Shown: piece after piece, positions 255 to 16,500 of the stretch
Position numbering within the stretch: the stretch's first letter is position 1
Layout: each line of letters opens with the position of its first letter
Source: Candidatus Micrarchaeota archaeon
Lineage (GTDB): Archaea; Micrarchaeota; Micrarchaeia; Norongarragalinales; SBBD01
Direction: 5' to 3'
Assembly (NCBI GenBank): GCA_038046605.1
Contig: JBBSVW010000054.1
Span: 1 to 18,397 of the forward strand
DNA: 18,397 nucleotides
Translations under genes and position numbers: made by a program
Notes under the pieces: model-generated
What the model was told of the DNA's origin: nothing
Databases searched by the model: none
Seen by the model: only the letters and a program-made list of their open reading frames with translations

Positions 255-277
255 GGGATTGCTGTAATTATTGCATA

Positions 278-1057
278 CTAGGATATTGCATCGATTTCGC
301 CCTTAATATATTCAAGCGCAATCTCCTCGCTGATGCCTGCGCCGATTTTCCTGAAGAACTTGAGCAGGTTGTGAATGTCATTTCTTAGGAACTGGCTCGC
401 CTGTGGATGGTGCGTCAAAACCGCCTGCCCAACATCGATGATGTATGGCTCATCATGGAAATTGATGATGTTGTACTCGCTCAAATCCACGTGCACAATC
501 CCCGCCTCATGCATCCTCCTCATATTCTCGAGGATTTTCAATACTGTTCCCATGGGGTCCAAAATCTCCGCCTCAATAAGCAGTTCTGAAGGGACGCCTT
601 CCTCCCCTAGGAATTCCATGACTACCACATTATCCTTGCACTTGACTGGCCTTGGCGCCCTCACCCCTGCCTTGTTCACAAGCTTCAGGTTAGCAAATTC
701 CTTTTTTGCAAAAATCCTAACCATCTCCCTTTTGTTCCCCGGCATGTTAAACCTTTTATCGCCCTCCAGGTACTGCGCACGCTTTTGGAACGAGGGCCCC
801 TCGAATTTGAAGATTTTCACGGCAAGGTATTCCTTTTCCCCTCCATCCGCTGCATCCTTTGTTGCGCGGTAAACCGCCGCCTCCTTGCCATGCGCAATTG
901 GGAAATCAAGCGATGAAAATACGCCCTTGATCATCAATTCCTTCAGGGTGCGTATGGTGACATCGTCAAACACCCTCTCGGAGAATTTGGTCTGCCCTTC
1001 CTTGATCATCTTGACCTCGCGGTCTGGGCGCTTTTTTGTGCTTAGTTTCATTGCCAT
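278..1057 (-). CDS. rio1: RIO1-family atypical Ser/Thr kinase/ATPase (small-subunit ribosome biogenesis)
   Basis: RIO1 motifs: xxGKEAAVY P-loop, AVKIFK, KEFANL, VVMEFLG, catalytic IVHVDLSEYNI and metal-binding IIDVGQAV..HP. No N-terminal winged helix of the RIO2 type. SD-like GGGAGGT just upstream. Confidence 0.93.
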   Translation of the reverse strand: MAMKLSTKKRPDREVKMIKEGQTKFSERVFDDVTIRTLKELMIKGVFSSLDFPIAHGKEAAVYRATKDAADGGEKEYLAVKIFKFEGPSFQKRAQYLEGDKRFNMPGNKREMVRIFAKKEFANLKLVNKAGVRAPRPVKCKDNVVVMEFLGEEGVPSELLIEAEILDPMGTVLKILENMRRMHEAGIVHVDLSEYNIINFHDEPYIIDVGQAVLTHHPQASQFLRNDIHNLLKFFRKIGAGISEEIALEYIKGEIDAIS

Positions 1058-1509
1058 TCTGTTAACCTCCCTTTGTGTTCTATTATTTTTCCCAATGTTG
1101 CATTATGGAATGGAAACTCTGATGGTTTGGCTCTTCTTCCAGTGCCCAAATCATAATGAAGCTTGTAATCGGCTCCAGCAAAAGGCAGCAAATCCTTTGC
1201 GAACCTTTTCAGACATTTCAAAACCATTGTTTTTTGGGGGGCAGTTAGTGTTTCATCTTCCCGTATGCCTGCGATTGTTTGCGGCCCATGTCTCATCTCC
1301 ACCCTCTTGATATCCTGCCTTATTGCGCCCCAGATCTCGATTGAATTTGGTTCGGCGCCAATGCCTTCCTCCATCCTCCTGGCCTGGGCTGCAAAATGGC
1401 TTGGTGCAAATATAAGTACATTCTTTTTATTAGGTCGGATAGTCATGATGAATGGGATAAAGGGGCCATCTACGCCAGTTACCCTTTCCGTATTCCCAAC
1501 TATCCTCAT
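1048..1509 (-). CDS. Hypothetical protein (153 aa)
   Basis: Fills the gap between endonuclease IV (1-nt spacing) and rio1 (10-nt overlap), which suggests an operon. No recognisable motif. Confidence 0.7.
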   Translation of the reverse strand: MRIVGNTERVTGVDGPFIPFIMTIRPNKKNVLIFAPSHFAAQARRMEEGIGAEPNSIEIWGAIRQDIKRVEMRHGPQTIAGIREDETLTAPQKTMVLKCLKRFAKDLLPFAGADYKLHYDLGTGRRAKPSEFPFHNATLGKIIEHKGRLTEWQ

Positions 1510-1510
1510 T

Positions 1511-2353
1511 TTAACCGCCTAATAATTTTGTGTAAATTTTCTGCATCTCCAGCGCATCATTCTCAATTTCCGGCGATTCGCAAATAATTGTTCCGGAGCA
1601 GCCCTTTTCAACAAGCGCTGCCGCAAGCAAGGAAAAATCCGGGTCCTTCACGCTTATTGGCAGATGATTTTTCTCCCCTTTTTCCGAATACGCGATCCCC
1701 TCAAAATGCACGTGCAATGTTTGGAGGTATTTTTTCCCGAACGATCCCGCAATTTCAAGTTTTTCCAAAAAATCGCCTTTTGTTCTGAGGCATCCATTCC
1801 CCCTCGCGTGCAAATGCCCAAAATCAATGCATGGGTTCACCTTTTCCATCCCGAACTCATTTGCAAGGGTGAAATTCTCCTCAAGCGTTCCGAACTGCGC
1901 GACCTTGCCCATGGTTTCAAGTGCAATTTGGGTGTTTTGAATTTTTTTCGCTTTTAGCTCATCAAGGATCATCCCTATCTGTGCCTTCATTTCCTCCATT
2001 GCCTGCTTCTTATCAATTTTACCGTAAAATGCCGGATGCACAACAATCCTCCTCGCGCCAGCAATACTTCCGATTTTACAGCTATCGACAATCCGCTTCC
2101 GGCTTGCAACCCTCTTTTCCTTTTCCACCGAGAGCAGGTTAATGTAATAGGGCGCGTGAATGGAAAGCGAAATTTTATTTTTTTCAGCAGCCTTCCGAAC
2201 CTCGAGCGCTTTTTCCTCCTTCATCTGCACCCCGTACACGAATTCCATCTCCATTGCATGCAGCCCAAGCTCATTCACGCATTCGATTCCCGAAATGGCA
2301 TCCCTCTCCTTAAGCCTTAATGGGATTCCCGCAGTCCCAAAAATAATTGGCAT
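1511..2353 (-). CDS. nfo: Archaeal endonuclease IV / AP endonuclease family 2 (TIM barrel)
   Basis: Metal-ligand motifs SIHAPYYINL, VVHP, LETMGK..FG, CIDFGHLHAR, HVHF, GEKNHL and IICESP. Confidence 0.9.
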   Translation of the reverse strand: MPIIFGTAGIPLRLKERDAISGIECVNELGLHAMEMEFVYGVQMKEEKALEVRKAAEKNKISLSIHAPYYINLLSVEKEKRVASRKRIVDSCKIGSIAGARRIVVHPAFYGKIDKKQAMEEMKAQIGMILDELKAKKIQNTQIALETMGKVAQFGTLEENFTLANEFGMEKVNPCIDFGHLHARGNGCLRTKGDFLEKLEIAGSFGKKYLQTLHVHFEGIAYSEKGEKNHLPISVKDPDFSLLAAALVEKGCSGTIICESPEIENDALEMQKIYTKLLGG

Positions 2354-2443
2354 AAATTATTGCCTTCAACCTTTTGTTGGCAAATTCACTGCGTTTGATA
2401 ATAAATAGGCTTCTTTCCGCCCTAATGCGCGATCCCCCTTCTC

Positions 2444-2462
2444 ACAAAAAGGTATTTAATTC
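2444..2462 (+). promoter_or_regulatory. Putative BRE/TATA promoter for the MBL-fold hydrolase
   Basis: Purine run AAAAAGG followed by TATTTAATT about 30 nt upstream of the ATG at 2492, in a divergent intergenic region. Confidence 0.4.
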
Positions 2463-2491
2463 TGCTTGGGGATGTTGTTAGCGGGGTAAAA

Positions 2492-3169
2492 ATGGTAACA
2501 CTCAAATACCTTGGGCATTCATCTTTCGAAGTAGCGCTTGGCTCCAAAACAATCCTGTTTGATCCGTGGTTAAATCCAAGCCCAAAAGAGGAGCAAAGGC
2601 TCCTTGCTCCCGCTCATACTGCCGAGGGCGTCAAGAAAGCCGACCTTGTCATGATATCCCATGAGCACTTCGACCATTTCGATCCCGCTGATGTCAAGCG
2701 CATATATGAAAAGACCTTCACTCACATGGTTGCGCCGCAAAACGTTTTCGAGCAATTGTCAATTCCGCAGAGCCGGCGGGTTGTTGCATACGTTGGGGAT
2801 GAATTCAATTACCAGGGAATTGACATCAAAGTAGTTGAGGCAAGGCATCCCCAATCCTCCGGCGCTGTTGGCTACATAATTTCTGATGGGAACCAAAGCG
2901 TGTATTTTGCCGGTGACACTTACGATTTCTTTGGCCTTTCAAAAATCCAGGCGGATGTAGCGCTTCTCCCAATTGGCGGAACTTACACAATGGATATGAT
3001 CGGCGCACTTTCGGCGCTTTCAAAGATGCGCGTTAAGCATATGATCCCAATGCACTACAACACCTTTGGAAACATCAAGGCAAACCCATACGAGTTCCAG
3101 AAGAGGGCGATGAAGGATTCAAAGGTTCAAGTGCATGTGCTTGACATTGGCGAAACAATAGAGCTTTAG
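2492..3169 (+). CDS. Metallo-beta-lactamase-fold metal-dependent hydrolase (UPF0173/UlaG-like)
   Basis: Motifs LGHSSF, FDPW, SHEHFDH (HxHxDH), YFAGDT, LPIGGxYTM and IPMHYNTF. Confidence 0.9.
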   Translation: MVTLKYLGHSSFEVALGSKTILFDPWLNPSPKEEQRLLAPAHTAEGVKKADLVMISHEHFDHFDPADVKRIYEKTFTHMVAPQNVFEQLSIPQSRRVVAYVGDEFNYQGIDIKVVEARHPQSSGAVGYIISDGNQSVYFAGDTYDFFGLSKIQADVALLPIGGTYTMDMIGALSALSKMRVKHMIPMHYNTFGNIKANPYEFQKRAMKDSKVQVHVLDIGETIEL

Positions 3170-3243
3170 TTAGTGGCAAAATTCCCGCCTGAATCCGTTT
3201 AATCCCCTTAACCTCATGGGCCCATAATTAGTTATTTGTGCCT

Positions 3244-3366
3244 CTAAAACCTGTATTCGTCGGGCTGCTTTGGCTTGCTTCTTTTAGGGTAGCTCATGAA
3301 CCAGATTATTATCACCATTGCAAGTGCCAAAATCACGGTTGTTTGGGAATCCAGGAAATCGCCCAT
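3244..3366 (-). CDS. Small single-pass membrane peptide (40 aa)
   Basis: Translates as MGDFLDSQTTVILALAMVIIIWFMSYPKRSKPKQPDEYRF*: a hydrophobic helix followed by a basic tail. A TATA-like TTTATATT lies about 22-29 nt upstream on the minus strand, which fits a leaderless transcript. Below the ORF-track cutoff. Confidence 0.6.
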   Translation of the reverse strand: MGDFLDSQTTVILALAMVIIIWFMSYPKRSKPKQPDEYRF

Positions 3367-3377
3367 GGAAAATTAAC

Positions 3378-3396
3378 TCTCGCTACGAATATAAAT
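3378..3396. repeat. Direct repeat copy 1, TCTCGCTACGAATATAAAT (TATA-containing)
   Basis: 18/19 identical to 3518-3536, offset by 140 bp. Confidence 0.9.
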
Positions 3397-3510
3397 GACA
3401 AGCCCAAGGGGGCACATCCCCCTTGCTCCAGATTCCCCAAGAATCTGGGCATGCCCAGAACCTCCGGTTCTGGGGCATAGTCTTGTCGGACTCCCAAACC
3501 CCCTGTTGGG
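3397..3510. ncRNA. Candidate structured RNA or palindromic element (four-way junction plus an extra hairpin)
   Basis: Closing stem GACAAG(3397-3402)/CTTGTC(3482-3487) encloses three hairpins: CAAGGGGG/CCCCCTTG (3405-3425), CCAGATTC/GAATCTGG (3428-3448) and ATGCCCAGAACC/GGTTCTGGGGCAT (3451-3478). A weaker hairpin lies at 3493-3510. The structure is seen directly; expression and strand are inferred. Confidence 0.5.
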
Positions 3511-3517
3511 CTTCTGT

Positions 3518-3536
3518 TCTCGCTACGTATATAAAT
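3518..3536. repeat. Direct repeat copy 2, TCTCGCTACGTATATAAAT; likely bidirectional TATA box
   Basis: 18/19 identical to 3378-3396. TATATAAA on + sits about 21-29 nt before ATG 3557. TTTATATA on - points into the structured element. Confidence 0.85.
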
Positions 3537-3556
3537 CATGGCTGCGTCTCCTTTTC

Positions 3557-4699
3557 ATGCCGCAGCCGCAGATGAAAAAGGAGCTAAAGAGGATCGGAAA
3601 GGATGCGCCAAAGGCCCTTATGCCCTACAAGCAAGACTATACCGGCTGGATGATTGGAGCCCTTGTTCTGATTGCCATCATTGCTATTGCACTGTATTTG
3701 AATGCTAACCAAAAATCCCCAAATCCTTCCCCAACTGCTGCTCCAACCCTAACTTCAACTCTAGTGCCAACCAAGCAATCCACTCCAACGCCATTTGCAA
3801 CTGCAACCCCAACCGATGAGCCAATTCCAACAATCACAAGGCTGGAAATTTCGAAGTGCGGGACGATCAAGGAAAGCATCACGCTCCAAAATGATCTTGA
3901 GTCCCAGGGGACGTGCCTAACTATTGCATCCCAGGGCGTCACTATTGATTGCAATGGATTCAAGATTACCGGAAAAACCGCCGAAAATTCGAGCGCAATT
4001 TATTCCGAATTTGCAAAAACTTCAGTTAAAAATTGCGTCATCTCCTCGTACGAACTAGGAATTAGGCTCTTCAAGGCCGATTCGAGCACTCTTGAGGATA
4101 ACGTTTTAACCGCAAACATTGGGGGCATGCTATTGCAACAAAGTAGCGGCTTGAAAATCCTGCGCAACCAATTCTACAACAGCTCCGAGGGCGCAATCAT
4201 CCTAAACAGCGTTGAAAAGAGCGCACTCGAGGGCAATTTCATCGACCAAAGCACGCGCTATGGCATCCAGGTGGTGGGCTCAAGCGACAACACCCTTAAG
4301 GGCAACCTGATCTACCGCAATAAATTTGGAATCCAGCTTTCGGGTTCCAGCAATAACCTCATTTTAGCAAACAATGTGAGCTTCAATTCCGCGGGAATCA
4401 AGATCACCTCGCGCTCCAGCGGCAACCGCATCGAGGGCAATTATGTCCTTGATAACCAAGGAGTTGGCCTTCATGTGCTTGATTCATTCGAAACCGTTAT
4501 CAAGGGAAACACGTTTTCTGGAAATGAATATGGGATCAACATGTTGGATTGGATAACCAATCTTGAGGACAATTATGCATGCGGCAACAGCATAATGGAT
4601 ATATACTGCGAGGCCTCCCAGAATGCAACAGGCAACATCTGCGAGCAAAGGCTTACCGCGTGCGGCTTTGATTGTGTAAGAAAATGCAAAACGGATTAG
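3557..4699 (+). CDS. Membrane-anchored right-handed parallel beta-helix (NosD/PbH1/CASH-type) surface protein
   Basis: Basic N-terminus, TM helix WMIGALVLIAIIAIALYL, Pro/Thr linker, CGTI..LQNDL..GTCLTI..GVTIDCNGFKITG cap, repeated N-x-x-GI-x-L-x-x-S-x-x-N-x-I/L-x-x-N coils and a Cys-rich C-terminus. I moved the start from the track's 3395 to 3557 (3572 is an alternative) because the upstream part is the hairpin element and a TATA precedes 3557. Confidence 0.85.
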   Translation: MPQPQMKKELKRIGKDAPKALMPYKQDYTGWMIGALVLIAIIAIALYLNANQKSPNPSPTAAPTLTSTLVPTKQSTPTPFATATPTDEPIPTITRLEISKCGTIKESITLQNDLESQGTCLTIASQGVTIDCNGFKITGKTAENSSAIYSEFAKTSVKNCVISSYELGIRLFKADSSTLEDNVLTANIGGMLLQQSSGLKILRNQFYNSSEGAIILNSVEKSALEGNFIDQSTRYGIQVVGSSDNTLKGNLIYRNKFGIQLSGSSNNLILANNVSFNSAGIKITSRSSGNRIEGNYVLDNQGVGLHVLDSFETVIKGNTFSGNEYGINMLDWITNLEDNYACGNSIMDIYCEASQNATGNICEQRLTACGFDCVRKCKTD

Positions 4700-4836
4700 A
4701 TGACGATTTGCCCGCTGCAAGGGGGAAAACCAATTCCATCCTGTGCGAACTTTGCGGCTCAACAATGGTCCAAGCCGGCGGCTGCTTTATTTGCATGAAA
4801 TGCGGGCAGAAGAAGTGCAATACGGATATTACGTAA
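4684..4836 (+). CDS. Small stand-alone zinc-ribbon protein (50 aa)
   Basis: Translates as MQNGLDDDLPAARGKTNSILCELCGSTMVQAGGCFICMKCGQKKCNTDIT*, with CxxCG-x8-CxxCxxCG-x3-C. Overlaps the upstream gene end by 16 nt. Not in the ORF track. Confidence 0.75.
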   Translation: MQNGLDDDLPAARGKTNSILCELCGSTMVQAGGCFICMKCGQKKCNTDIT

Positions 4837-4840
4837 CCTC

Positions 4841-4877
4841 CGACACAATGAGGGGGCTAAGCCCCCTACTTGTGTCG
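4841..4877. terminator. Strong hairpin between convergent genes (possible bidirectional terminator or REP-like element)
   Basis: CGACACAA-tg-AGGGGGC-taa-GCCCCCT-ac-TTGTGTCG gives 8-bp and 7-bp perfect stems, starting 4 nt after the zinc-ribbon stop. Confidence 0.5.
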
Positions 4878-4936
4878 CTTCTACCCCCCTATTTAGCTCT
4901 GCGAATTTATCAGAATTAGCGATTTGCGTTTTTTCA

Positions 4937-5635
4937 TTAGCGAAGCGATTCCCAAAGGATTTCCGCACGGGAATCGACTTCAATTCCTTTTTCCGATATG
5001 GTAAAAGGCCTAACGCTCTTGTCGTTGTCCGTTCCCCTCATCTTCCTAACAAAAATCGAGCGGTGGGGCGGGAAGAAATACATCAGCACAACCCCATCGC
5101 ACAAGAACTCCTCCACCCCGAACCTGGAAAGATCATCCTTTTTCCCGGAGGTTTCGCAGGTTAGTAGGGTGGTCACATCCATTTTCCTAAGCTCCTCGAT
5201 AAGCGAATACATGGCGTACCTGATCTTGGAGGAATCATCAAGCCAGAGGGAAAACGCCGTAATTGAATCAATCACAAGGCGCTTTACTTTCATCTCCTTT
5301 GCCTTTTCAATTATCCTTCTCGTCTGCCCTTCTATGTCATCCTTCATGCCAAGCGAAGGCTCGAATTTGTATATTTTAAGCATGTCCTCCTTTTCCAGCG
5401 AAAGCAGGTCCCATTTGAATCGCTGCATGTTCCACCACATATTGTGCGGGCCTTCCTCGAGTGTTATGTACGCCCCTTTTTCCCCGTACAATTTTGCGCC
5501 GTTATATAGGTATTGCATGCAAAGTATGCTCTTCCCAGCTCCTGGCCCCCCGGAGATGAGTATGCTCGAACTTTCCGGGAACCCCCCTTCTATCAATTCG
5601 TCTAGGCCAGGTATTCCCGATTTAACGCGGTTCAT
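4937..5635 (-). CDS. KaiC/GvpD/RAD55-family RecA-like ATPase (single domain)
   Basis: RVKSGIPGLDELIEGG start, Walker A GGPGAGKS, YITLEE, Walker B RLVIDS, EEFLCDGV and KMRGT. GGGGAG SD upstream. Confidence 0.92.
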   Translation of the reverse strand: MNRVKSGIPGLDELIEGGFPESSSILISGGPGAGKSILCMQYLYNGAKLYGEKGAYITLEEGPHNMWWNMQRFKWDLLSLEKEDMLKIYKFEPSLGMKDDIEGQTRRIIEKAKEMKVKRLVIDSITAFSLWLDDSSKIRYAMYSLIEELRKMDVTTLLTCETSGKKDDLSRFGVEEFLCDGVVLMYFFPPHRSIFVRKMRGTDNDKSVRPFTISEKGIEVDSRAEILWESLR

Positions 5636-5644
5636 GTTGCTCCC

Positions 5645-6172
5645 CTAAAATTCAGGCTTTTTGATCCTTACCTTAAGTACCATCAGGATGGCTGTAATTA
5701 TCATTGCAAAAGGCGAAAGCCCCCTTGCGAAATGGAAGACCAGGACTAGAAGCATCGCCGCCGCCGGAATTGGCAGCCCAAAATATACCCCTTCCTCCTT
5801 TTGGATGTTGAATGCCGCAAGCCGGATCAGCCCGGCGCACACGTAGCAAAGTGAAAAAACCAGCGCCATGGGTGAATAATTGCCCGAAAGCACAATAGCC
5901 GCTGGCGCCACCCCAAATGAAATTATGTCGGCAAGGGAATCAAGCTCCCTGCCAAATTCATTCCCCTTGCGGGTATCCCTGGCCACCTGCCCGTCGAGAT
6001 AATCAAATGCGGCTGAGATGAATACGAAAACCACAGCTGCAACCGGATTGGAGGAGAGGGCATAGTAGATTGAAAGGAATCCGGAGGCGCCATTTGCCAG
6101 GGTCAGGAAATCCTTCGCTTCAAGCGACTCAACCGCATCGTGTAGCATAATACGGGGTAATGGTTTTGGCAT
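5645..6172 (-). CDS. pssA: CDP-alcohol phosphatidyltransferase, PssA/archaetidylserine synthase-like
   Basis: Signature DYLDGQVARxxxxGNEFGRELDSLAD followed by ISFGVAPA, IRLAAFN and FxGLPIPAAA, as in PssA-type enzymes. Multiple TM helices. Confidence 0.82.
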   Translation of the reverse strand: MPKPLPRIMLHDAVESLEAKDFLTLANGASGFLSIYYALSSNPVAAVVFVFISAAFDYLDGQVARDTRKGNEFGRELDSLADIISFGVAPAAIVLSGNYSPMALVFSLCYVCAGLIRLAAFNIQKEEGVYFGLPIPAAAMLLVLVFHFARGLSPFAMIITAILMVLKVRIKKPEF

Positions 6173-6190
6173 TAAAAAGGCTTACTTACG

Positions 6191-6946
6191 CTAAGCAAGC
6201 CCAAGCCTTGCGATTCTTTTCTTTTGGGCAACAAATGCTTTTTCATATTCCAATGCTCCCCGATCCATCAATTTGTGCGCAAGCTCATTTGCCTGCAATG
6301 AATTATTATCGGACAAATAATAGAGGTGGGAAAATTCCCTTCTAAGGAGTGCGAGGAGAGCGCCACGTTCCAATTTCCTTGCAAATTTGCTTGCAATGCG
6401 CCGTATCTGGGTAAAGTCGATAAGAAGCCCGCTTCCTCTTTTATCCACTATCATGTTCTGGTAGAGGTGGCCTTGAAGGTAGCCGGCTGCATGCAGCTTC
6501 CCAAGCGCTCTTGCGATCCCAAAAAACGTCCCCTCCTTCTTTTGGATTGGTACCGAATCATCAAACAAGTAATCCGAAAGAGGCCTGCATCCGCGTTTCC
6601 AGAGGGTAAGGTAGCTTGTGCCTTTGGGAGTCCTTATCATCGCAAATGGCGTTTCGACCACGGATGCATGCAAATCCGCGGCTTTTTGCATCGCTTTGAA
6701 ATTCCTTTCCTTGGGCAGGAATACCGGATCCATTTCCCGCCTCATTTTCCCTGTCACATGGCGCACCGCAAGAAGGCGGCCATTCAATTCGTGCACGTTT
6801 ACTAACGGATGCTGCCCCACCTGCTTTTTGGGCTTTTCACTTAGCGCTTTAAGTATTCCATCCGGTGATGTTTTTTCCCAGTGCAATACCTCCATTTCAC
6901 CTATTCTGGAGGTTTTCCATCTTATTGGCATACGATGTTTTACCAT
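6191..6946 (-). CDS. Divergent protein-kinase-like (Kdo/WaaP/Bud32-like fold) protein with a degenerate catalytic loop
   Basis: LLAVR (beta3), ERNF (alphaC), VETPFA, LGKLHAAGYLQGHLYQN and LLIDF appear in protein-kinase-like order, but the HGD loop reads QGH. Confidence 0.65.
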   Translation of the reverse strand: MVKHRMPIRWKTSRIGEMEVLHWEKTSPDGILKALSEKPKKQVGQHPLVNVHELNGRLLAVRHVTGKMRREMDPVFLPKERNFKAMQKAADLHASVVETPFAMIRTPKGTSYLTLWKRGCRPLSDYLFDDSVPIQKKEGTFFGIARALGKLHAAGYLQGHLYQNMIVDKRGSGLLIDFTQIRRIASKFARKLERGALLALLRREFSHLYYLSDNNSLQANELAHKLMDRGALEYEKAFVAQKKRIARLGLA

Positions 6947-7056
6947 TTTTGGGATTAATATTGGCTCCGCCCTTCCTTGGCACTCTTAAAAAACCCTTTT
7001 CAGTATAATCTATCCGGGCCTTACCGAAAAAAATGAAAGTTCGATTCGGGCTTGTA

Positions 7057-7153
7057 TTTGAACCTTTTCTTTCTCCTTCAGAAAGATTTGCCCTCCGGAA
7101 AAGAAAGATGGCAATTTGCCTTGAGGATAGAGTGGAAAAGGTTTGGAAAAGAA
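7057..7153 (+). other. tRNA intron at position 9/10 (97 nt, long hairpin)
   Basis: Terminal stem 7057-7070/7134-7147 (14 pairs including G.U) and inner TTGCC/GGCAA. Relaxed BHB: GGG/CTC outer helix, AA|G bulge, CTTG/AAAG core (3 bp plus G.A), TA|T at the 5' site. Confidence 0.72.
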
Positions 7154-7175
7154 GCTCAGCCTGGTCAGAGCGCCA

Positions 7176-7221
7176 ATGGACTATTAGGAGCGCTTCAAAC
7201 AAAACTAACTGTCCCGTGCAA
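7176..7221 (+). other. tRNA intron at position 29/30 (46 nt)
   Basis: Core helix GCGC(7170-7173)/GTGC(7216-7219), bulges CA|A and AA|G, outer helix AGA/TCT, inner GGAC/GTCC after a T.C mismatch. Confidence 0.85.
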
Positions 7222-7229
7222 GTCTTATA

Positions 7230-7266
7230 TGACGATATTGCAAAGCGCAATATTGCTCTCTAGGTG
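7230..7266 (+). other. tRNA intron at canonical position 37/38 (37 nt)
   Basis: Strict BHB: core CTTA(7224-7227)/TAGG(7261-7264), bulges TA|T and TG|A, flanking GA/TC and a CGATATTGC/GCAATATTG stem. Confidence 0.9.
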
Positions 7267-7302
7267 AACTGGATGTCCCGGGTTCAAATCCCGGCAGGCC
7301 CA

Positions 7303-7309
7303 TTTTTCT
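7303..7309 (+). terminator. Oligo-T tract after the tRNA
   Basis: TTTTTCT immediately after discriminator A7302, as expected for an archaeal terminator. Confidence 0.45.
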
Positions 7310-7330
7310 AATCAATTAGCCGGCGCTCTA

Positions 7331-8500
7331 TTATTTCTCCTCCAAAACTTCCTTGTAGAGCTCCTCATAACCTTTAGCCGAAAGGTCCCAGGTGAAATTG
7401 GTTTCGCACCTTTTCCTTGCATTTGCGCCCATTCTTCTTCTTGCCTTCTCATCCCTAAGCAATTTGAGCATGCTCTCCTTGATTTGCGAAGCATTCCGGC
7501 TTTCAAAGAGGAATCCGGATTCCTCCTGGATGATTTCAGGTATGCCCCCGATTTTTGTCCCAATAACCGGCTTTCCACTTGCCATCGCCTCGCAAAAGAC
7601 CATGCCAAAGGGTTCCCATACGCTAGCCAGCGCGAAGAATTCGCTTGCCGCGTAAAGTTCCGTCATGTCGGATTCAGGCATTTTTTCGGTGATGAAAATC
7701 ACGTCCTTCCCAAGCCCCAAATCCGAGGCATATTTTTTCAAATAGCCCTCAAGCGGGCCTTTGCCCAAAATTACGAGCGTCACATCCTTTTCCTCCTTGA
7801 CAACATCCGCAAAGGCCTTTAGAAGGTAAACAAAGCCCTTTTGGACCTGGAGCCTTGCAATTGAAAGGATGATCCTATCCTCGCCAAGGTTGTATTTCTT
7901 CCTGATATTCCCTTCCTTGTTTTTGGGGTTGTAAAGCACAGTATCGACTCCATTGTAAATTACGCGCTTTATGGCGGTCACATCCCTTGGGGCGGTTAAT
8001 TCCAGGGTATCCCTGCTGACCCCCGCAAGCGCGTGGACCGCCCGCATTGTCTGCCTTCCTAGTACGTCATCGTAAAGATTGCCAAATGTATCTGTTGCCC
8101 AGTCAATGCCCGTCAATCTGGCGTTGTGCAGTGTGAGGCCAATTGTTTTGCCTCCCAATCGCTTGATTAGTGCAACATCTAGGAGGGTGTAAAAAAACCT
8201 ATTGTGCATGTGGAAAATGTCGTGCTTGGGAATTTCCTTAATGAGTTCGGTTAGAAAAAGCGGCGAAACCGGCGCCGGTGGGGGCACCGGATAGGGCGTT
8301 TGGTAGAATACCTTGCAGGGGATGCGCTTGACCTTGATCCCATCCAGCTCCTCGTAAATGGGGGTGTTTGGCACCTGTGCGGTTAGGACGGTGACATCGT
8401 GCTTTTTTGCAAGCCTTCTGGAAACCTCCAACACATGCTTTTCCGTCCCTCCCAGGTAGGGGTGAAAGAATGGATTCAACATACATATATTCATTTGCAA
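7331..8500 (-). CDS. Glycosyltransferase family 4 (GT-B fold)
   Basis: FHPYLGGTE, LTLHN, VIYNGVD, IARLQVQKG, ILGKGPL and the EPFGMVFCEAMASGKPVI..IGGIPEII (E-x7-E) motif. Confidence 0.93.
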   Translation of the reverse strand: MQMNICMLNPFFHPYLGGTEKHVLEVSRRLAKKHDVTVLTAQVPNTPIYEELDGIKVKRIPCKVFYQTPYPVPPPAPVSPLFLTELIKEIPKHDIFHMHNRFFYTLLDVALIKRLGGKTIGLTLHNARLTGIDWATDTFGNLYDDVLGRQTMRAVHALAGVSRDTLELTAPRDVTAIKRVIYNGVDTVLYNPKNKEGNIRKKYNLGEDRIILSIARLQVQKGFVYLLKAFADVVKEEKDVTLVILGKGPLEGYLKKYASDLGLGKDVIFITEKMPESDMTELYAASEFFALASVWEPFGMVFCEAMASGKPVIGTKIGGIPEIIQEESGFLFESRNASQIKESMLKLLRDEKARRRMGANARKRCETNFTWDLSAKGYEELYKEVLEEK

Positions 8501-8562
8501 ATCACTGTTTCAATGGGCTGCATTGGCACGCTTGCATAATTATCTCATCATCAAGTGGGCGG

Positions 8563-8733
8563 TCAAATTTTTAATAACATTTCCCGCAATACTTCCTGAG
8601 AGGTTGCAAAGTAGATGTTGTGCCGCTTGAGCTCATCAAGGAATTCCCATAAAGAGACGCCAGCTTTGGCAGCAGCTGCCCATGCTGTGAGATATCCTTT
8701 CTGATATTCCCGTAATGCGACCTTAATTTTCAT
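8563..8733 (-). CDS. UPF0175-family small HTH protein (predicted antitoxin type), possibly truncated
   Basis: ALREYQKGYLTAWAAAAKAGVSLWEFLDELKRHNI fits the UPF0175 pattern. ATG at 8733 (track uses TTG 8745), with an in-frame stop just upstream. Confidence 0.65.
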   Translation of the reverse strand: MKIKVALREYQKGYLTAWAAAAKAGVSLWEFLDELKRHNIYFATSQEVLREMLLKI

Positions 8734-8820
8734 TTCTCCAACCAACTAAAGCAAAGAAGCGCAACTATAAGAATATATTGCAAGAGCTGAAGCTAATAAC
8801 ATATTTGTAAGGTGAACTAG

Positions 8821-9087
8821 TCAGCCCTTCATGCTCTCCAGCTCGCTCATGAGGTTCCAGATCATTGTCCTTGCGTGCATTGGGAGATTGATGTCGCTTG
8901 AGACCTCATCAAGGGTGTAGATGACACTTCCAATTGCCAGGTCCGGATCGGTCCCCCCTTTAAGCTTTTGCTGCGCATTCTGGAGGTTTGACCTTACATT
9001 CCTTGGGATGGACGTATCCGTGACCATGAGTTCAAGCATCTGTGAAATTTTCTCCAGCTCCGACTTGTCGATTGGCATTTTAACCAC
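8821..9087 (-). CDS. UPF0147-family archaeal protein
   Basis: DTSIPRNVR and LDEVSSDINLPMHARTMIWNLMSELE are characteristic. Start is GTG 9087 or ATG 9078. Confidence 0.9.
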   Translation of the reverse strand: MVKMPIDKSELEKISQMLELMVTDTSIPRNVRSNLQNAQQKLKGGTDPDLAIGSVIYTLDEVSSDINLPMHARTMIWNLMSELESMKG

Positions 9088-9264
9088 ATTTTCCCCTAAA
9101 AGAATAAGTAGTATTCCTTATCCGAAATGAATTATTAAACCCTATGAAAAAAGCAAATTGTCGGGCAAATTATTGCAATTATTGAAATTGCGGATAAAAA
9201 ATTGCGCCAAAATCAATTCCTATCCTACTCCCCCCAAATCCCAATGGCCTAATCAATCAGCAGT

Positions 9265-10491
9265 TCAATATTTTATTATCAATTTATCCCCGATGCTTGC
9301 AATGCTCTCAAATCCAAAATCAATCTTTTGCCCTTTTTGCGTTTGCACAATAAGCGCCTCGGAATCCCTATTGACGCCCGTAATTTTGCCCAAAAAGCCG
9401 CCTATTTCAGTGTAAACCTCCTTGCCCTCCAATTTCATTGCGGAAATGATATTTCGCTTGAACTGCTTTGCCAGGTATATCACAAGGTACATGATTGCAA
9501 TTGTAAGCACTAGGGAATAGAAGAAATCCGCAAAGCTGATATTGCCAATCACCCACTCCGCGGCATTATTTGCAATCATCCAGAATAGCACCACTGCTGA
9601 AAACGAAACCGCAAAGCCAGGGAGCTTGTATCCCTTCTTGTCATTCCAGGTTTCGAGGAAGTTGCCCCCGATCAATAGGATGAGCGCTATTGGGAAAAGC
9701 AATAGGAAATCCTTAAGCGCAAAAGCTATGATTTTGGCGATATTGCCAACTCCCACCGCCTGCAATTCGGAAACCCTGGCAATTGCCAAATAGATTGATA
9801 TGATGATGAACGCTGCGGATGCAAAAAGGAAGATGAAGCTGACCCGCTCAACGGAAAATTCAGCCCTTGCAAATCTCCTAAGGATCGCTTCTTCCACCCC
9901 AAATCCCTTCAAAATGAGGTAGGCGCCAAAAATCCCAAAGAAAAAGCGCACTCCCGCCTCCTGGAATAGGAAGGTGAGCAATAATAGCAAACCCGGAATT
10001 CCAAACACAATCCTGGCAAACTGGGGCTCCTTCAATTTTTCCAATAGCACGAAATAGGTCTTCTCCAATTCCTTGCTCTGCTTGACGATGAGGGTTTTGA
10101 CCGAATTGACCTTCACCCTGCTTTGTATGAGCGGCAATACCTGCTCATCAGATGCCCCATCTGAAACGAATATGCATGCTTCAGGCTTGAAATCATCAAT
10201 GATTTTTTCCAATTGCTTGACAACCTCCCTATCGGCGTAATACCCAAGCCTTGCGCTTCCGGTGATTGTTGCAACCTCTGCTGTATAACCCTGCTTTTTG
10301 AGATCGTCGTACGTCTTAACCGCCTGGAAGATTGTATTGCCATCGGTATCCCCTGGATCTGCGAGTGAAAATTTGGTTGCCGCATCGATATTGCGCTTCC
10401 TTCCAATGACCGGCCCTTTCATCCTGGCCTTTTCATACAAATCATTGTCCACATCTACGCACAAAACCAGCAGGCGCTTTGCATCGGGCAT
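9265..10491 (-). CDS. DUF373-family membrane protein with a C-terminal PRC-barrel-like extension
   Basis: LVLCVDVDNDL, PVIGR, ADPGDTDGN, SDGASDEQVLPLIQSR and VKQSKELEKTYF, then several TM helices. The C-terminus LEGKEVYTEIGGFLGKI...IASIGDKLII resembles a PRC barrel. GGGAG SD upstream. Confidence 0.88.
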   Translation of the reverse strand: MPDAKRLLVLCVDVDNDLYEKARMKGPVIGRKRNIDAATKFSLADPGDTDGNTIFQAVKTYDDLKKQGYTAEVATITGSARLGYYADREVVKQLEKIIDDFKPEACIFVSDGASDEQVLPLIQSRVKVNSVKTLIVKQSKELEKTYFVLLEKLKEPQFARIVFGIPGLLLLLTFLFQEAGVRFFFGIFGAYLILKGFGVEEAILRRFARAEFSVERVSFIFLFASAAFIIISIYLAIARVSELQAVGVGNIAKIIAFALKDFLLLFPIALILLIGGNFLETWNDKKGYKLPGFAVSFSAVVLFWMIANNAAEWVIGNISFADFFYSLVLTIAIMYLVIYLAKQFKRNIISAMKLEGKEVYTEIGGFLGKITGVNRDSEALIVQTQKGQKIDFGFESIASIGDKLIIKY

Positions 10492-10576
10492 ATTTTACTC
10501 CCTTTACTACGGAAAACTATTTGTTTGGGGTTTGGAGGTTTAAATAAGCAGTATTTTGAGGCAAATTTCAATTAAT

Positions 10577-13500
10577 TTAAGGCCCTCTTAGGATTGAAAG
10601 GTCGTCAGCTACAGATCCATCGTATGTGGGTTGGTTTGAAGTAATTGGTGGGGTTGGCTTAACAAACATGGGGCTTCCCTTCAAGCTCCAGAATCGACCC
10701 TGAACATTTGTGCCAGAGATCAATTTTGCGTATATTGTCCTATCCTTCACTTCGCTGATGGGAAGGTAAGCTTGTGCCGTGCCGTCTGCTTTTATTGAAG
10801 TGGGTGCGTGACCTCCTGCATTCGTTTCCGAAACACCAACAAAAAGCTGAGCCTCCAAGAATGGCTTTTTGCTCCAAGCCCCAATCTTTGCCTTATCCAA
10901 TCCGATGATATTTACGCATATGTATTTGTGAACGGCCGGGTCGTATTGGTATTGGGCGACGCCGTTTACAATTGTGATTTGGTCCGTATTTGCACATTTA
11001 TCCGTATTGGTTTTTACGCCTGATACCACTATGGACGGGATCAGCTCCTTTGCGCTAAAAGTAGTTTGTGTGACGGGAGGATTGGTTATGTAATCGGGTG
11101 TTGGCGGGCCGTATACTTCGGGTGTGGGCGGACCAAATGGTGTGCTATAATCCATATCCGCAAGGCTCATCGCAGTTTGTGGAAATTGAATGGTGGCATC
11201 GGTTCCTTCTGAAGCAGCATCGCTTTCCGCCCCCCCCTTAGCAAAGCTTTGGACATTTTCCGTTTGCTCAACTGTAACGGGTATCTTCTTGCCCTCTATT
11301 GTTATTTCCGATGGCGCGGATTCATCCAAAAGGAAGCGCATTTGCGCCTTGATTATTTCAAGGGATGTTTTCATTACCTCATCCCCATACGGGCTTTCAA
11401 TGCAAAGCTCTCCCTCGGTTGCCCCCAATATTCTGGTCGAATCCAATGAACCTGATTTTATGGGGTCGCATGACTGGACGTTGCTTGCAACGATGATGCT
11501 TAGTTTCCTGCTATCTGGGCTTAATTGAATCCAGCTAGTTGCTTTGTTTATTTTCTGCTTATTGATTGCCCCTTGGATTGCTTTCAAATCGATCCCGAAT
11601 TTTGCGCATCCATTCTCGTACTCTTTATTGTCAACGAAAATGATTTCACTTTCGGATTGCTTTTTAAGCTCAATCCAGCAGGATGTGACTTTTATCGCTT
11701 TCTTATCCTCCTTGTCCTCGATAATAAGTTCCTTGAGGGGCTTTTCTCCTTCCGTGAATATCTTTAGCTTGTCATCAGTTAGATCAAGCGGATACTTGTT
11801 CATCGTGAATAGGTTGGGCTTTCCTGGATCATCAACGGCAACCGTTGTTTTATCTCCATCCTTGATTAGGTAGAAATACTGCGGCGCCTTTTTGTCCTCA
11901 AACCTAATTGGCGCAAACTTCCCTGATCCGGAAGCTCCCTGCGAATCCGGCCCAGTTACCGTCGTTGGCGTTGCATCTGATACCTTCTTTCCGCCAACCC
12001 AATCCGAAAGTGAGATTAGCCCACCGGCGCCTCCGGTGGAGAGTGCATCCCCAATCTTATAGCGCTCCAAAACAAAGCCCGCACTTTCCCCCTGCGCTGC
12101 CGCCTTGTAGAGCACATCTACATCGAGCCCGTCCAAATCCACAATCGGCCTCGTGTAGCTGATGCGCGGGCTGTAAAGCGAATCCCCAAGCAATTTCCTC
12201 ATTATTAGGGTTTTTAGAAGATCGTAATTGCCCGTTGCAAAGATTGCCTCATAATTGTTAGCCACTTCGGAATCGCAAGCAGCCCTTGCAAATTGCTCTT
12301 GCGTCATCGCCCAGAATTCCCCTCCGGAAATGGAGTTGTCGCAGTGCGTATCGCCTGCATAGCATTCATAATTGCTTGTTCCGGAAATTTTTCCGGTGCA
12401 AATATCCATCCAGCCCTTTGCTCCTCCGCACGCCTTGTATTGCGCCTTGTCGGCGGCATAATCCGCAAGCGTCCGCGCAAGTGCGTCGGCAAAGCGCCTT
12501 GCGGCATACTCCCCAAAGCCCGCATAATCGAGGCGTTGGACCGTTATAGATTCGGCAAGGCTTCCATCCCCATCAATCAGTTCTCCTTTTACAATTTCCT
12601 TTTCAGCATCCAGGATATCCTTATTGCAATAGTCCTTCCCCTGGCATTTGTTTGCAACCTCATCTTCGTTTACGTCGGCTTTCTCGATATCGGTTAACGC
12701 ATTCCCAATAACATCCAAGGTGGCGTTTGATGAGATGATTTCAGCATATGGCAATTTCATATCCTTCAACGGATAGGTTTGCGATTTGACAAGGTTCAGG
12801 CTAAGCTTGTTTGCCGCATCATCCTTCTTTGCAAGATTCAATTCCGAGTAATAAAGTTTATCCAATTTGCCTGCAGCCCTGGACAAATCAAGTGATGATC
12901 CCGAAACCTTTGCCAGGTTGCTGTTTGGGATATTATTCAAAATGTAGAATGGTTCTTTTGTGATTGTATTGGGGGTAGTATCCGTTGTCTGGGTGGATAA
13001 TCTCGAAATCACATTCGTACCTGCGGGCACCTTTTGCAAAGCGTACTTGTTCCATGTGTCATCAATTACGAATTTAATCCTGATAACAAATGCCTGCCCT
13101 GATTGGGGGAAATTAACTGAAAGCGTTTGAATTGCCTCGGGTTCGTCCTTTTCTGAAATCCCGCCAAACCTAAGGCGCACATTCCCATTCTCATCAAGGT
13201 CATATTTCATCTTCTTGGGATCGTTGGTCAAAACGAATGTTGCAAACCTTGGCGCCGTCAGGAAAACTTCGCTAAGTGCCTGCAGCCCGCCGACTATGAA
13301 TCCATCGGGCCCTTGCTTATCAACATAGATGGCGGAAAGATATTCGTCTTTTGTTCCTGCCTTATTGATCAAAAGCTGCGTTGGTGAGCCAGAATAAAGA
13401 GCATAATCGTTTACAAGCGTGAATGCTATCCCATTCACCGGCAGGAAGGGTGAGAGATGCACTTCGCATGTGTAACCGCCGCCGTTATCCTTGCAAAGGT

Positions 13501-16500
13501 TAGGATCCTGTGCGCCTGAGAATGTTCCGCCCATGCCATATTGTTGATTAAATTGTTGGTAATATCCACTAGTTCTTTGATCATTGATATTGAACTGTGA
13601 TTGCGTCGGGTTAAATCCGCCGCCATAAACTCCTTGGGGCGCAAGCCCGCCGGGAACCCTTCCAAATTGCATCATGTTGGGCCCCACCTGGATTTTGTAT
13701 GCGCTGCTGTATGCAATCTGCGCGCTCTTTCCGGAACTTGGGTCAAAGAAGCTCACGGTGCTCTTTGCCAAATAACCCACAAAGCGCTGCGCAAAATAGT
13801 TCAAATTCTTGTACCTGCAGGCGGCTTCCGGATCGCCAACAATCACAACCCCCCTAACCGATGTGCGGGTTGGATCCCTGTAATTGTAAACTCCGGGCTG
13901 GCCAAATTTGAATGAGTAGGATTGGCCTGGCTTTATCACATCCTTGCTAAATAGCAGCTTGCTTGATATGAGCTTGTCATCGCCGGTTGCAAAGGATGCA
14001 ACCCCGTGATATTTGCCATCCATATTGATCCATGTGAGCGTCGAATTCGCATCGATCCGGATGCTTGCCGGCTCAAAACCAAGGTCGGTTATTAAAACCG
14101 TGTTGCTGGAGCCGGATAGGGATTTCTTTGGCCCAATAACCTTTGCCTGAACGGTTTCGGTTGCAGCGCCAGAAATTGTTATCAGAACCCTTCCGGTTTG
14201 CAGCTGGGTTTTATTCAGGCCAACGGAAACCTGGGTGTTATTTGCAACATAAGCTACCGTATCGGTGTAATATGGGTGCGCGTTGTAATCGGCCTTGATG
14301 AATATCGATTTTGTCGACCTATAGGTATCGCAATCCACCTCCACGAAATTATTAATCCTAAGGTTTGCATTTGGCTCCGAGCTTCGGATTTCGCAATCAT
14401 ACGTTGAGCTGTTGCCAACCAGGTAGGCAATCGAGTAATATAGGTCGTTCTTTTCCAGGTCCTCCGTGAGCTCAATTGCAAAATTCTCCGGAAGGTCGGG
14501 ATATTGCGAAAATGCCTCGCACGCATTTGCCACGCAGAATTTCCCTCCTCCGCACTCCTCATCTGTGGTGCATGAAACCTTGCAATAATTATTCCTGCAA
14601 ACCTTCCCATCAGCGCAATCCCCATCCTTTGTGCATTCGGGAACGATGCATGATTTGGTTGAGGGATCGCAAATGTATCCGGTGTCACAAGGATTATCCT
14701 GAGAGCATGCGATCTTTTCGCATTTATCCTCTACGCATTCATAGCCGGCGCTGCAGGGGTTGGCATTTGTGCAGGTGCTTGGCTGGCAAGCGCCGCTTAC
14801 GCATTCCTCATCATCGTCGCAATCATTTGAATTAGTGCAAACCTCCCCCGGCGGAACCGATGGCCTTGGGGACACTGTCGGGGCAGGTGAGGGCGAAGGA
14901 ACGCGCTTCTTGCAAACCGCCCCCGCATCAAAATCGCAGAAATCGCCGGTTTTGCATTGGGCATCGCTAAGGCACACCTTATCGAGCACTTCGCAATTCA
15001 CTTTTGTTGTAATTTTCAAATTCGCATGCGCTCCTCCAGCCTGCGAATCAAAACTCAAATCGCAAAATGTGCCTTGCTTTGTGGGATTTAGCACAAGTTC
15101 CTTTGTTCCCTTTCCCTTTAGTGAAAATGTCGCCTGGTTGCCATTTGCAATTACCCCATCGCCCATTATTTCGAGGCACGAGCTTTTTGCCAGCACATAA
15201 ATATCCGCAGAAAGGAGGTTGGTAATTTCAACGCTTCCGCCATCGCAAGTGAGTGTGAGGGCGTCCGAGCTGGATTCAAGGAAATCATTAAGCCTTGAAG
15301 TGATCTGCTTTTCAGAAGGCTTGAACCCTTCGCGTTTTGCAACAATTGTGAATGTGCCAGTGCTTAGCGGGTGCACTTGCTTGAAAACATATTTGCCATC
15401 CCTTCCGGAATTGTCATTTCCATTTCCAATAATTGATTCGGGCGTGTTCCCCTCAAAAACTGAGCTTTCGTCCTCCTCAATTGAAACCGTTGCATCGCTA
15501 ACCGGCTCGCCATCAAGCGCATTCGAGAGAATGACCGTAATCCGCCCATCCTCATTTGCCTGCAAATCAATTGGTGAAACGCCCATTTCAAATTCATTTT
15601 CACCTGTAATCTGAACGGTGCTCTTCAATGTGTGAATAACCCCCGAAGCATCCCCGAATTCGAGCATCACTTTTGAGAAGGCGGATGGGAGTTTGCCCTT
15701 TGCAGAAATATCCCCGCTAACCGCGCTGCCCTCTCCAAAACCTTCCACATCGAATGTGTATTCGGCGGAGCCACTGGCATCCCCGCTTGAATCGGCAAAA
15801 TTGAATGCATTGAATATGATTTCATCATCATCTGAAATTTTGAAATACGGCGCATCAAAGGCCTTCAATGCGCGCCCAGAAATAAATGCCTTGAACGGCT
15901 CGCCAGTTGTTGCAGAAAAGCCCTTTGCAACCTTTGCCTGCGCCTTCCCGAAAAGCATGGACATGCAAATGCCACCTTTGCAGGAGAATTTGTCCTCGGT
16001 CACCTTGAATGTTGTCCCATTGAGCGCAGCATAGCACGAATCCTTATCTGCGTTTTTCTCCTCGCTTCCAAGGCCGGCATCCTCCGGAACCCTCGTGAAT
16101 ATTTTGCCTGCAGCCGCATATCCCCTATATTCAAAACTTACGCTGCTTCCTGATTTTGCCTCCGGTTTCACAAACACTTTTACGATGATGCCCTTGGTAC
16201 CCGCCTGCTTTTTGTACTCGTAATTGAGCCACTTGGATAGAGAATCGGATGAATCGCTGTCCCCGGAAATGTCGGATGTGCAATCGGCTGAGGGCTTGTA
16301 TGTGATTCCCTTTGTTATGATTGCATCGGATGGCTTTTCATAGCCCGAAATTGCCGCATAATCCTCATCCGCGGATCCGAAGCCGCTTCCCGAAACCTTA
16401 AGGAAAATCCCCCCCTTTTCGCTTCCTTGCGGGATGTTTAAGGTGAATTTTGCCAAATAATAAGAGCCCCTTATGAGGGATGGGATTGCTGTCGAGTATA

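Follow-up and report, generated by a model that had tools for sequence, protein, structure and literature searches.

A tRNA-Ile(UAU) gene in Micrarchaeota with a probable protein-spliced intron between positions 9 and 10

The DNA examined here, referred to as the window, comprises nucleotides 1-18,397 of a contig (JBBSVW010000054.1, assembly GCA_038046605.1) from a Candidatus Micrarchaeota archaeon, read along its forward strand. Comparison of its sequence confirms that nucleotides 7048-7302 are a gene for tRNA-Ile(UAU), in which four exons are separated by three introns. Very probably, all three are protein-spliced BHB introns, the first being a 97-nt segment (7057-7153) that interrupts the tRNA between positions 9 and 10. 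This is how the original prediction had read that segment, and the reading is supported. A cloverleaf appears once the segment and the other two introns are removed, its flanks are contiguous in relatives elsewhere, and congeners keep the site with unrelated interiors in it.

What is new here is a degenerate copy of tRNA positions 1-10, which lies upstream of the gene at the predicted start of transcription.

The gene and its detection

The starting point was a matter of pairing. The 3' acceptor strand CAGGCCC (7295-7301) finds no partner in the seven nucleotides that immediately precede the D-arm, but it does find one in nucleotides 7048-7054. The sequence proved to be as described. Here, 7048-7054 form six Watson-Crick pairs and one G-U pair with 7295-7301, and the D-arm starts at G7154. 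Two further introns, at 29/30 and at 37/38, were found in addition to the one predicted. When all three are removed (Table 1), ARAGORN calls the product tRNA-Ile(tat), with a perfect cloverleaf and all stems intact. CCA is absent from the DNA at the end of exon 4, and the discriminator is followed by a run of T.

On the window as it stands, ARAGORN reports no gene. Rfam at gathering scores likewise gives no match in the window, and in E-value mode it returns only chance-level matches over 6960-7340. The Rfam tRNA model has 24 matches in the whole genome, none of them at 7048-7302. A split (trans-spliced) or permuted tRNA gene was considered and rejected, all four exons being collinear on one strand within 255 nt.

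Contigs of two studies match 7007-7123, 7054-7292, and 7102-7325 with zero differences, and both junctions of intron 1 are included in these matches. The arrangement is therefore no assembly artefact, since contigs of two studies are identical across it. An intron-less DNA form of the gene does not occur among the contigs of these two studies. Among RNA runs, none was found to contain the locus.

Table 1. Features of the tRNA-Ile(UAU) gene, its upstream region, and related loci in other genes and genomes
Feature	Location	Strand	Basis or remarks
Predicted TATA box TTAAAAAA	6986-6993	+	Conserved as TTAWAAA across all 7 congeners; constant spacing of about 22 nt to the copy below
Degenerate copy ("B") of tRNA positions 1-10	7016-7025	+	Lies 32 nt ahead of exon 1, where transcription is predicted to begin
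Invariant 10-mer ATGAAAGTTC in the leader	7033-7042	+	Identical in 8 of 8 orthologues
Exon 1, tRNA positions 1-9	7048-7056	+	Sequence GGGCTTGTA; pairs with 7295-7301
Intron 1, 97 nt, site 9/10	7057-7153	+	Relaxed BHB; tail AAGAA invariant
Exon 2, positions 10-29 (D-arm and anticodon stem 5' strand)	7154-7175	+	Call on spliced product, alignment
Intron 2, 46 nt, site 29/30	7176-7221	+	BHB central helix 4/4, outer 3, inner 4
Exon 3, positions 30-37, with anticodon TAT	7222-7229	+	Call on spliced product, alignment
Intron 3, 37 nt, canonical site 37/38	7230-7266	+	BHB central helix 4/4, outer 3, inner 2
Exon 4, positions 38-73 (T-arm, 3' acceptor strand, discriminator A7302)	7267-7302	+	Sequence
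T-run, likely terminator (putative function)	7303-7307	+	Abuts the discriminator
Best relative of intron 1 in the same genome	G000 C26:14606-14694		E 2.4e-5; just past a GTC anticodon
Further relatives of intron 1 in the same genome	G000 C27:21162-21233, C57:9954-9998, C26:14269-14332, and others		In D-arms and anticodon stems
Congener tRNA-Ile(UAU) loci with four inserts	L002, L004, L016, L102, L103		
tRNA-Arg(CCU) loci with a 9/10 insert	L128-L136, L140, L141		In G279, G232, G236, G376, G116, G160, G230, G348, G347, G007, and G218

The splicing motif of the first intron

The original prediction held that the inserted DNA folds into a long hairpin, and it does so through a 14-bp basal helix that joins intron nucleotides 1-14 to nucleotides 78-91. 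Folded alone, the intron has a minimum free energy of -28.7 kcal/mol (z = -2.09); five of 200 shuffled sequences fold equally well.

The standard BHB geometry has a central helix of 4 bp, with the cuts two nucleotides to the 3' side of it. With a cut at 9/10, the central helix is formed by positions 4-7 and the four bases preceding the last two intron bases, and the outer helix by G1-G3 with C11-U12-C13. At the junction 7056|7154, this register gives three of four central pairs, three outer pairs, and eight inner pairs. The 8/9 register gives two of four, none, and eight, respectively. Thus, the earlier statement that a BHB-like core exists in the 9/10 register and not at 8/9 is borne out, and it extends to all seven genomes of the genus. 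There, the 9/10 register has a central helix of 3/4 in five genomes and of 4/4 in G002 and G004, with a 3-bp outer helix in every one; the 8/9 register has 0-2 of 4 central pairs and never an outer helix.

The motif is, of course, a relaxed one. G7 lacks a central-helix partner in five of the seven genomes, and in several of the seven the 5' bulge has two nucleotides rather than three. A scan that tolerates a bulge of 2-4 nt found 33 of 23,596 junction pairs (0.14%) within 7046-7303 that reach at least three central, three outer, and four inner pairs. In a stricter scan that requires a 3-nt bulge, the 9/10 junction falls outside the 40 best candidates of the region.

Minimum free energy folds, moreover, do not contain the bulged register. 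In them, positions 1-6 form an unbroken 6-bp helix, the opposite strand of which consists of the last two intron bases followed by G10-C13. Two registers are possible because the repeat AAG-AAG spans the boundary between intron tail and exon; we infer that the splicing enzyme picks the bulged register over this helix. For the 9/10 BHB to form, moreover, acceptor stem and D-stem must both be open.

Because an A stands on both sides, cuts at 8/9 and at 9/10 would yield an identical mature tRNA. The assignment to 9/10 is accordingly one of geometry, and it follows from the standard placement of the cuts given above. By its sequence, the feature fits an archaeal protein-spliced BHB intron, with a relaxed motif at the junctions and a cloverleaf that is restored on its removal.

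Introns that bear C/D-box sRNAs are found in tRNA-Trp of some Euryarchaeota. The original prediction had seen no C/D boxes here, which agrees with Rfam: its best match there, sR60, reaches 12 bits where the gathering score is 50 (E 5.6). The idea of an sRNA-bearing intron was rejected; no Rfam family reaches its gathering score, and the sR60 match straddles the intron-exon border.

Orthologues in the genus and the order

A DNA search covered 41 genomes of the order, and the regions found were then compared. All seven genomes of the genus, together with one metagenome variant, carry an insert of 30-97 nt at the same 9/10 site. The inserts fall into a long class (97, 92, 86, and 94 nt in G000, the genome of the window, and in G001, G002, and G006) and a short class (30 nt in both G003 and G004, 31 nt in G005). 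The metagenome variant (L108), with a 95-nt insert, came from a pattern scan that gave 23 matches. Eighteen of these were unrelated, having no D-arm within 250 nt, four were duplicates of sequences already in hand, and one was a new distinct orthologue.

A spliced alignment against the mature sequence of the window's gene, made without reference to any motif, also places an insert at the 9/10 site in all eight orthologues. Every one of the eight spliced products is called tRNA-Ile(tat) by ARAGORN. Exon mismatches relative to the window number two in G002 and zero in the other seven, and exon 1 is unchanged throughout. The intron tail AAGAA before G10 is likewise common to all eight; the base preceding it varies. 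Interiors of the long and short classes do not align with one another. The basal helix of the intron 1 hairpin is maintained by differing sequences, with changes on both strands as judged by eye.

Comparison with intron-less alleles had been proposed as a check, and such alleles exist. In nine orthologues of other genera, four from the same family (G007-G010) and five from the same order (G014, G016, G020, G032, and G039), positions 1-9 run into the D-arm without interruption. In G032, the nine bases of this contiguous 5' end are identical to exon 1 of the window.

Intron 2, at 29/30, is shared with the congeners and with several other genera. The inserts per tRNA-Ile(UAU) gene total three in G000, four in G001-G005, and five in G006 and the metagenome variant. 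Two of the five lie in the T-arm in both G006 (L003:1520-1924) and L108.

The 9/10 site elsewhere in Micrarchaeota

A motif resembling exon 1, followed by one resembling the D-arm at a distance of 12-42 nt, was sought in 401 genomes. Seventeen contain the pattern; a reversed control gave none. Three of the matches (G099, G144, and G217) were set aside as a promoter or leader motif ahead of an uninterrupted tRNA, and two are short-class congeners.

One match is the tRNA-Ile(UAU) gene of G012 (L139:139-520), a genome that belongs to the order but to another family. Its intron at 9/10 measures 37 nt and has a tail that pairs perfectly with positions 4-7. As other genera of the window's own family have no intron at this site, its presence in G012 represents either independent gains or an old gain followed by losses.

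The remaining 11 matches belong to a second gene, assigned as tRNA-Arg(CCU), with an insert of 17-32 nt at 9/10. Removal of the insert makes ARAGORN call tRNA-Arg(cct) in five of them (G279, G116, G230, G347, and G007). The other six have further introns and are miscalled or uncalled by ARAGORN; by eye, they share the same exon 2. In G230, the 9/10 intron is the sole intron of the gene. The intron tails of G012 and of the tRNA-Arg genes that were inspected form, again by eye, all four central pairs of the 9/10 register, and A-N stands between that helix and G10.

To judge from these sequences, then, the 9/10 site is not unique to the window, but recurs in two tRNA families and in several families of Micrarchaeota. 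Both tRNAs begin with GGG and have GCUC as the 5' strand of the D-stem. This, in turn, means that the outer helix of a 9/10 motif is built in, which may explain why the site has been reused.

Within the window's own genome, a heuristic census for other displaced 5' exons ahead of a canonical D-arm found none but that of the window's gene. The census combined a T-arm, perfect acceptor pairing, and a D-arm, and so a tRNA escapes it if the acceptor stem is imperfect or the T-stem holds an intron. It gave 655 raw and 78 filtered candidates, 77 of which were judged by eye to be chance.

Intron bodies and their families

BLAST of the three introns against their own genome returned only self-matches. 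A profile built from the four long-class introns found similar stretches of about 90 nt in other tRNA genes of the genome, at other positions (Table 1). Further, the 29/30 and 53/54 introns of the congeners' tRNA-Ile(UAU) genes resemble intron 1, and the 5' half of intron 1 has copies at several other loci of G001-G004 and G006.

Sequence comparison thus indicates that sister species can have unrelated intron bodies, two in all, at one and the same splice site, and that the family of the long body occupies many sites.

A second intron family, with a common GC-rich hairpin core, was observed in the T-loops of several tRNA genes of the genome (G000 C75:677-784, C30:1682-1883, C75:7250-7418, and C9 near 23167). 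In congeners, it is also present in the T-loop of the tRNA-Ile(UAU) gene.

The host genome and its need for the gene

The genome (1.64 Mb in 106 contigs, 90.7% complete) is archaeal in the neighbourhood of the gene, with RIO1, KaiC, DUF373, and CDP-alcohol phosphatidyltransferase genes in the window. The nearest relatives of the DUF373 protein all come from Micrarchaeota assemblies, some of them labelled Norongarragalinales. The window also holds a 251-aa open frame without a Pfam match (6191-6946, minus strand), flanked by the CDP-alcohol phosphatidyltransferase gene on one side and the tRNA gene on the other. There is no space for such a frame in G003 and G004, where the coding frame upstream stops about 130 nt before the tRNA gene. 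A giant open frame (10577-18397, minus strand, more than 2,596 aa) runs past the end of the window. Its CarboxypepD_reg, Big_1, macroglobulin-like, and cupredoxin domains make it look like a large surface protein.

For processing, the genome encodes one splicing endonuclease (EndA) of 388 aa and of the epsilon2 type, a full-length match to the ARMAN-2 enzyme 4fz2 (E 3.5e-126). It also encodes the RtcB ligase (569 bits) and the RNase P RNA (88.6 bits; gathering score, 84). Judged by gene content, the host thus has the epsilon2-type EndA and the RtcB that BHB splicing at relaxed motifs requires.

The gene should also be needed. ATA is a common codon: a crude six-frame count, confined to open frames that are at least 300 codons long, gives 5,562 ATA among 325,267 codons. 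In this 90.7% complete genome, BLAST of the spliced product finds no second tRNA-Ile(UAU), only 7048-7302 itself and a T-arm match in another tRNA. A contiguous UAU anticodon arm in a tRNA context occurs nowhere in it. The TiaS domain PF08489 has no match in the same 90.7%, and was matched in four of four archaeal control genomes. By gene content, therefore, the tRNA-Ile(UAU) gene is probably the genome's only AUA decoder; a second decoder or TiaS could lie in the missing 9% or so.

The upstream copy

The copy of positions 1-10 lies about 22 nt downstream of the TATA box, a spacing that is about constant in the seven aligned genomes. Archaeal promoter spacing is the basis both for the promoter role of 6986-6993 and for the placement of the start site. 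From the sequence, the copy's first G is the predicted first base of the transcript. By eye, the mature 5' ends of other tRNA genes, both in this genome and in sister genera, stand at that distance from the TATA box.

The first six bases of the copy, GGGCCT (GGGTCT in G001), are maintained in all eight orthologues between variable flanks. In three congeners and the metagenome variant, the copy reads GGGCCTGCAG, which differs from the tRNA 5' end of relatives at position 8 only. Its complementarity to the 3' acceptor strand extends over 6-7 of 7 positions. When the precursor is folded from the copy onward, the copy pairs with the 3' acceptor strand with a probability of 0.83-0.99 in the seven genomes, and exon 1 does so with a probability of 0.00. 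In these folds, exon 1 sits in a helix with the intron tail and C11-C13. Folded without the copy, the precursor has exon 1 paired with the 3' acceptor strand.

Between copy and exon 1 lies the invariant 10-mer ATGAAAGTTC. It occurs three times in the genome against about three expected by chance, so it is no general motif of tRNA leaders. A leader hairpin was considered as a conserved structure and discarded, being strong in five of eight orthologues and weak or absent in three. A separate observation concerns L127 (G144), where an acceptor-like 9-mer stands 15 nt upstream of an uninterrupted tRNA-Ile(GAU); this may be another copy of a 5' end.

How such a copy is to be understood is more subtle. 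By analogy, it may be a scar, that is, the direct repeat of a tRNA 5' terminus that the Caldiarchaeum integration model predicts (PMC3293823). In that model, as in the present case, an intron-bearing tRNA gene has been reconstituted and has one tRNA terminus directly repeated beside it. Here, however, the repeated stretch spans only about 10 nt and stands 16-24 nt from exon 1, with no integrase or element remnant between them. The arrangement is common to all eight orthologues and so is an old one, not one that is polymorphic in a population.

Alternatively, the copy might be a working decoy, a proposal that comes from the folding models and that we consider rather unlikely. Nucleotides 7016-7021 would pair with the 3' acceptor strand and thereby free 7048-7054 for the weak 9/10 BHB. 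After splicing, the true 5' strand would displace the decoy, which RNase P would then remove. No upstream copy was found in the 60-90 nt of upstream flank of 12 genes with a strict 9/10 BHB (the tRNA-Arg genes and the G012 tRNA-Ile), and a decoy is therefore not generally required for 9/10 introns. If the proposal were true, the decoy would be a case of leader-assisted splicing, serving an intron that, but for the leader, would be in competition with the acceptor stem. Scar or decoy alike, the copy would be a rare footprint of the arrival of an intron by duplication of the tRNA 5' terminus.

Proposed processing and alternative readings

Gene anatomy, conservation, motif, and enzyme genes can be read from the DNA, and they suggest a course of processing in which the cleavage itself, the exact bond, and the order of steps are inferred. 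In the precursor, G1-G3 would pair with C11-U12-C13 as the outer helix, and C4-U5-U6 with the AAG of the intron tail as the central helix; the fourth pair, G7-N, would usually be a mismatch. The 3' bulge would comprise the last two intron bases and G10, and the 5' bulge U8, A9, and the first intron base. The long hairpin would close intron 1. The epsilon2-type endonuclease would then cut in both bulges, and RtcB would ligate A9 to G10. The 29/30 and 37/38 introns would be excised likewise, after which RNase P would trim a leader of about 32 nt and CCA would be added. Once excised, intron 1 might persist as a circular RNA, as the original prediction suggested.

Two alternatives move the splice junctions. 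A cut at 8/9, with the same mature tRNA, is quite improbable. The motif-free alignment is blind to the choice, its gap having happened to fall at 8/9, and the unpaired G7 of most genomes lets the 5' bulge be read as G7-U8-A9. Against this, the standard geometry leaves the 8/9 register with its poor central helix and no outer helix in all seven genomes, and the inspected 9/10 introns of tRNA-Arg(CCU) and G012 have, by eye, their perfect 4-bp central helix in the 9/10 register. It is less probable still that the mature 5' acceptor strand comes from 7016-7022 rather than 7048-7054, by way of a longer intron or an extra intron in the acceptor stem. The copy does stand exactly at the start predicted from the conserved TATA box, and it has the complementarity to the 3' acceptor strand, and the folding probabilities, given above. 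However, U8 is replaced by A in the copy of the window and is also absent in five of the seven other orthologues, and in three of eight the copy's position 7 is a T opposite C66; these two features argue that it cannot be a functional 5' exon. Nucleotides 7048-7056, moreover, are invariant in the eight orthologues and equal the contiguous 5' end in G032. A search by hand gave no BHB register that would join the copy with either exon 1 or the D-arm. Positions 4-6 pair with the invariant intron tail as they stand in exon 1 (C-T-T), and do not in the copy (C-C-T).

The other alternatives deny that a tRNA is made. In one, which we hold to be very improbable, a pseudogene in decay carries an insert that is never removed, either junk DNA or the scar of a mobile element. 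Such a view would account for a gene that is invisible to standard tools, for an intron 1 that resembles a repeated, low-complexity intron family, and for the relic of a 5' end upstream. It is hard to reconcile with exons that stay near-invariant over eight orthologues while the introns turn over, with BHB motifs at three of three junctions, with a predicted promoter and a T-run that are in place, and with a genome in which ATA codons are common and neither another tRNA-Ile(UAU) gene nor TiaS was found. The chance that the region instead codes for protein is next to nil. Two frames are indeed open, one of 76 aa (7033-7263, plus strand) and one of 117 aa (6897-7250, minus strand), and the invariant 10-mer starts with ATG. 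Neither frame has a Pfam match at E <= 0.1, and the plus-strand frame, as read by eye, ends after 38 codons in G003. The insert lengths of the orthologues (97, 92, 86, 30, 30, 31, 94, and 95) differ by numbers that are not multiples of three. A tRNA-Ile(UAU) gene with three protein-spliced introns is thus the preferred reading.

Comparison with known systems

The closest known system is that of ARMAN-2 (Candidatus Micrarchaeum acidiphilum), which belongs to the same phylum and has the same type of endonuclease (Fujishima 2011, PMC3239211; Hirata 2012, PMC3488258; a structure paper of 2025, PMC12397907). Of its tRNA genes, 56% are given as disrupted (PMC3239211), and its epsilon2 endonuclease cuts relaxed BHBs at non-canonical sites in vitro (PMC3239211). 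Similar, too, are relaxed or strict BHB introns at non-canonical sites, several of them per gene, and an intron-bearing tRNA-Ile(UAU). The positions named in the main text for ARMAN-2, however, are 37/38, 53/54, and 59/60, with no 9/10, and the intron described here is at the boundary of acceptor stem and D-arm. The ARMAN-2 substrates assayed, as described there, had introns of 13-25 nt, against 97 nt here.

The review text of PMC4090602 names intron sites at 3/4, 20/21, 22/23, 25/26, 29/30, 30/31, 45/46, 53/54, 56/57, and 59/60, "etc." An intron at 9/10 is not among the positions named in these review passages, and no statement of one was found in the other texts consulted. From the same review come the Thermoproteales, with multi-intron tRNA genes that include a 3/4 intron and with "intron transposition" (Sugahara 2008, Fujishima 2010, cited in PMC4090602). 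As described there, they too have BHB introns at many positions, and the exon pairing of their 5'-proximal introns competes with the acceptor stem. The similar intron sequences found here at different sites and in different tRNA genes agree with "intron transposition" in the sense of that account (PMC4090602). The Thermoproteales belong to another phylum, however, and have an (alpha-beta)2 endonuclease, as the review has it, rather than the epsilon2 type found here.

The maximum number of introns per archaeal tRNA gene is given as three, by tRNAscan-SE 2.0 (PMC8450103) and by two reviews. G001-G006 and the metagenome variant, with four or five inserts, exceed it. The five inserts of G006 and the metagenome variant equal the maximum reported for Asgard archaea in a 2026 preprint. 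As described there, Asgard archaea are alike also in that standard tools miss inserts in or near the D-arm, and in that gains are repeated and lineage-specific, at BHB-compatible sites; a few inserts are mentioned for the "acceptor stem and junctions." They differ in phylum and in a median insert length, stated there, of 22-23 nt.

Significance

The sequence evidence supports the view that the element is an ordinary archaeal protein-spliced tRNA intron, in a phylum known for such introns, at an unusual site. That ARAGORN and Rfam miss what is probably the sole AUA decoder of the genome means that the tRNA sets of Micrarchaeota look incomplete for a technical reason. If the proposed splicing is correct, the range of sites expected of the archaeal endonuclease would extend to the junction of acceptor stem and D-arm, where the motif competes with two stems of the tRNA itself. 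Two unrelated bodies at one site, together with a relic copy of the 5' end, would then provide material on how tRNA introns arrive and are exchanged.
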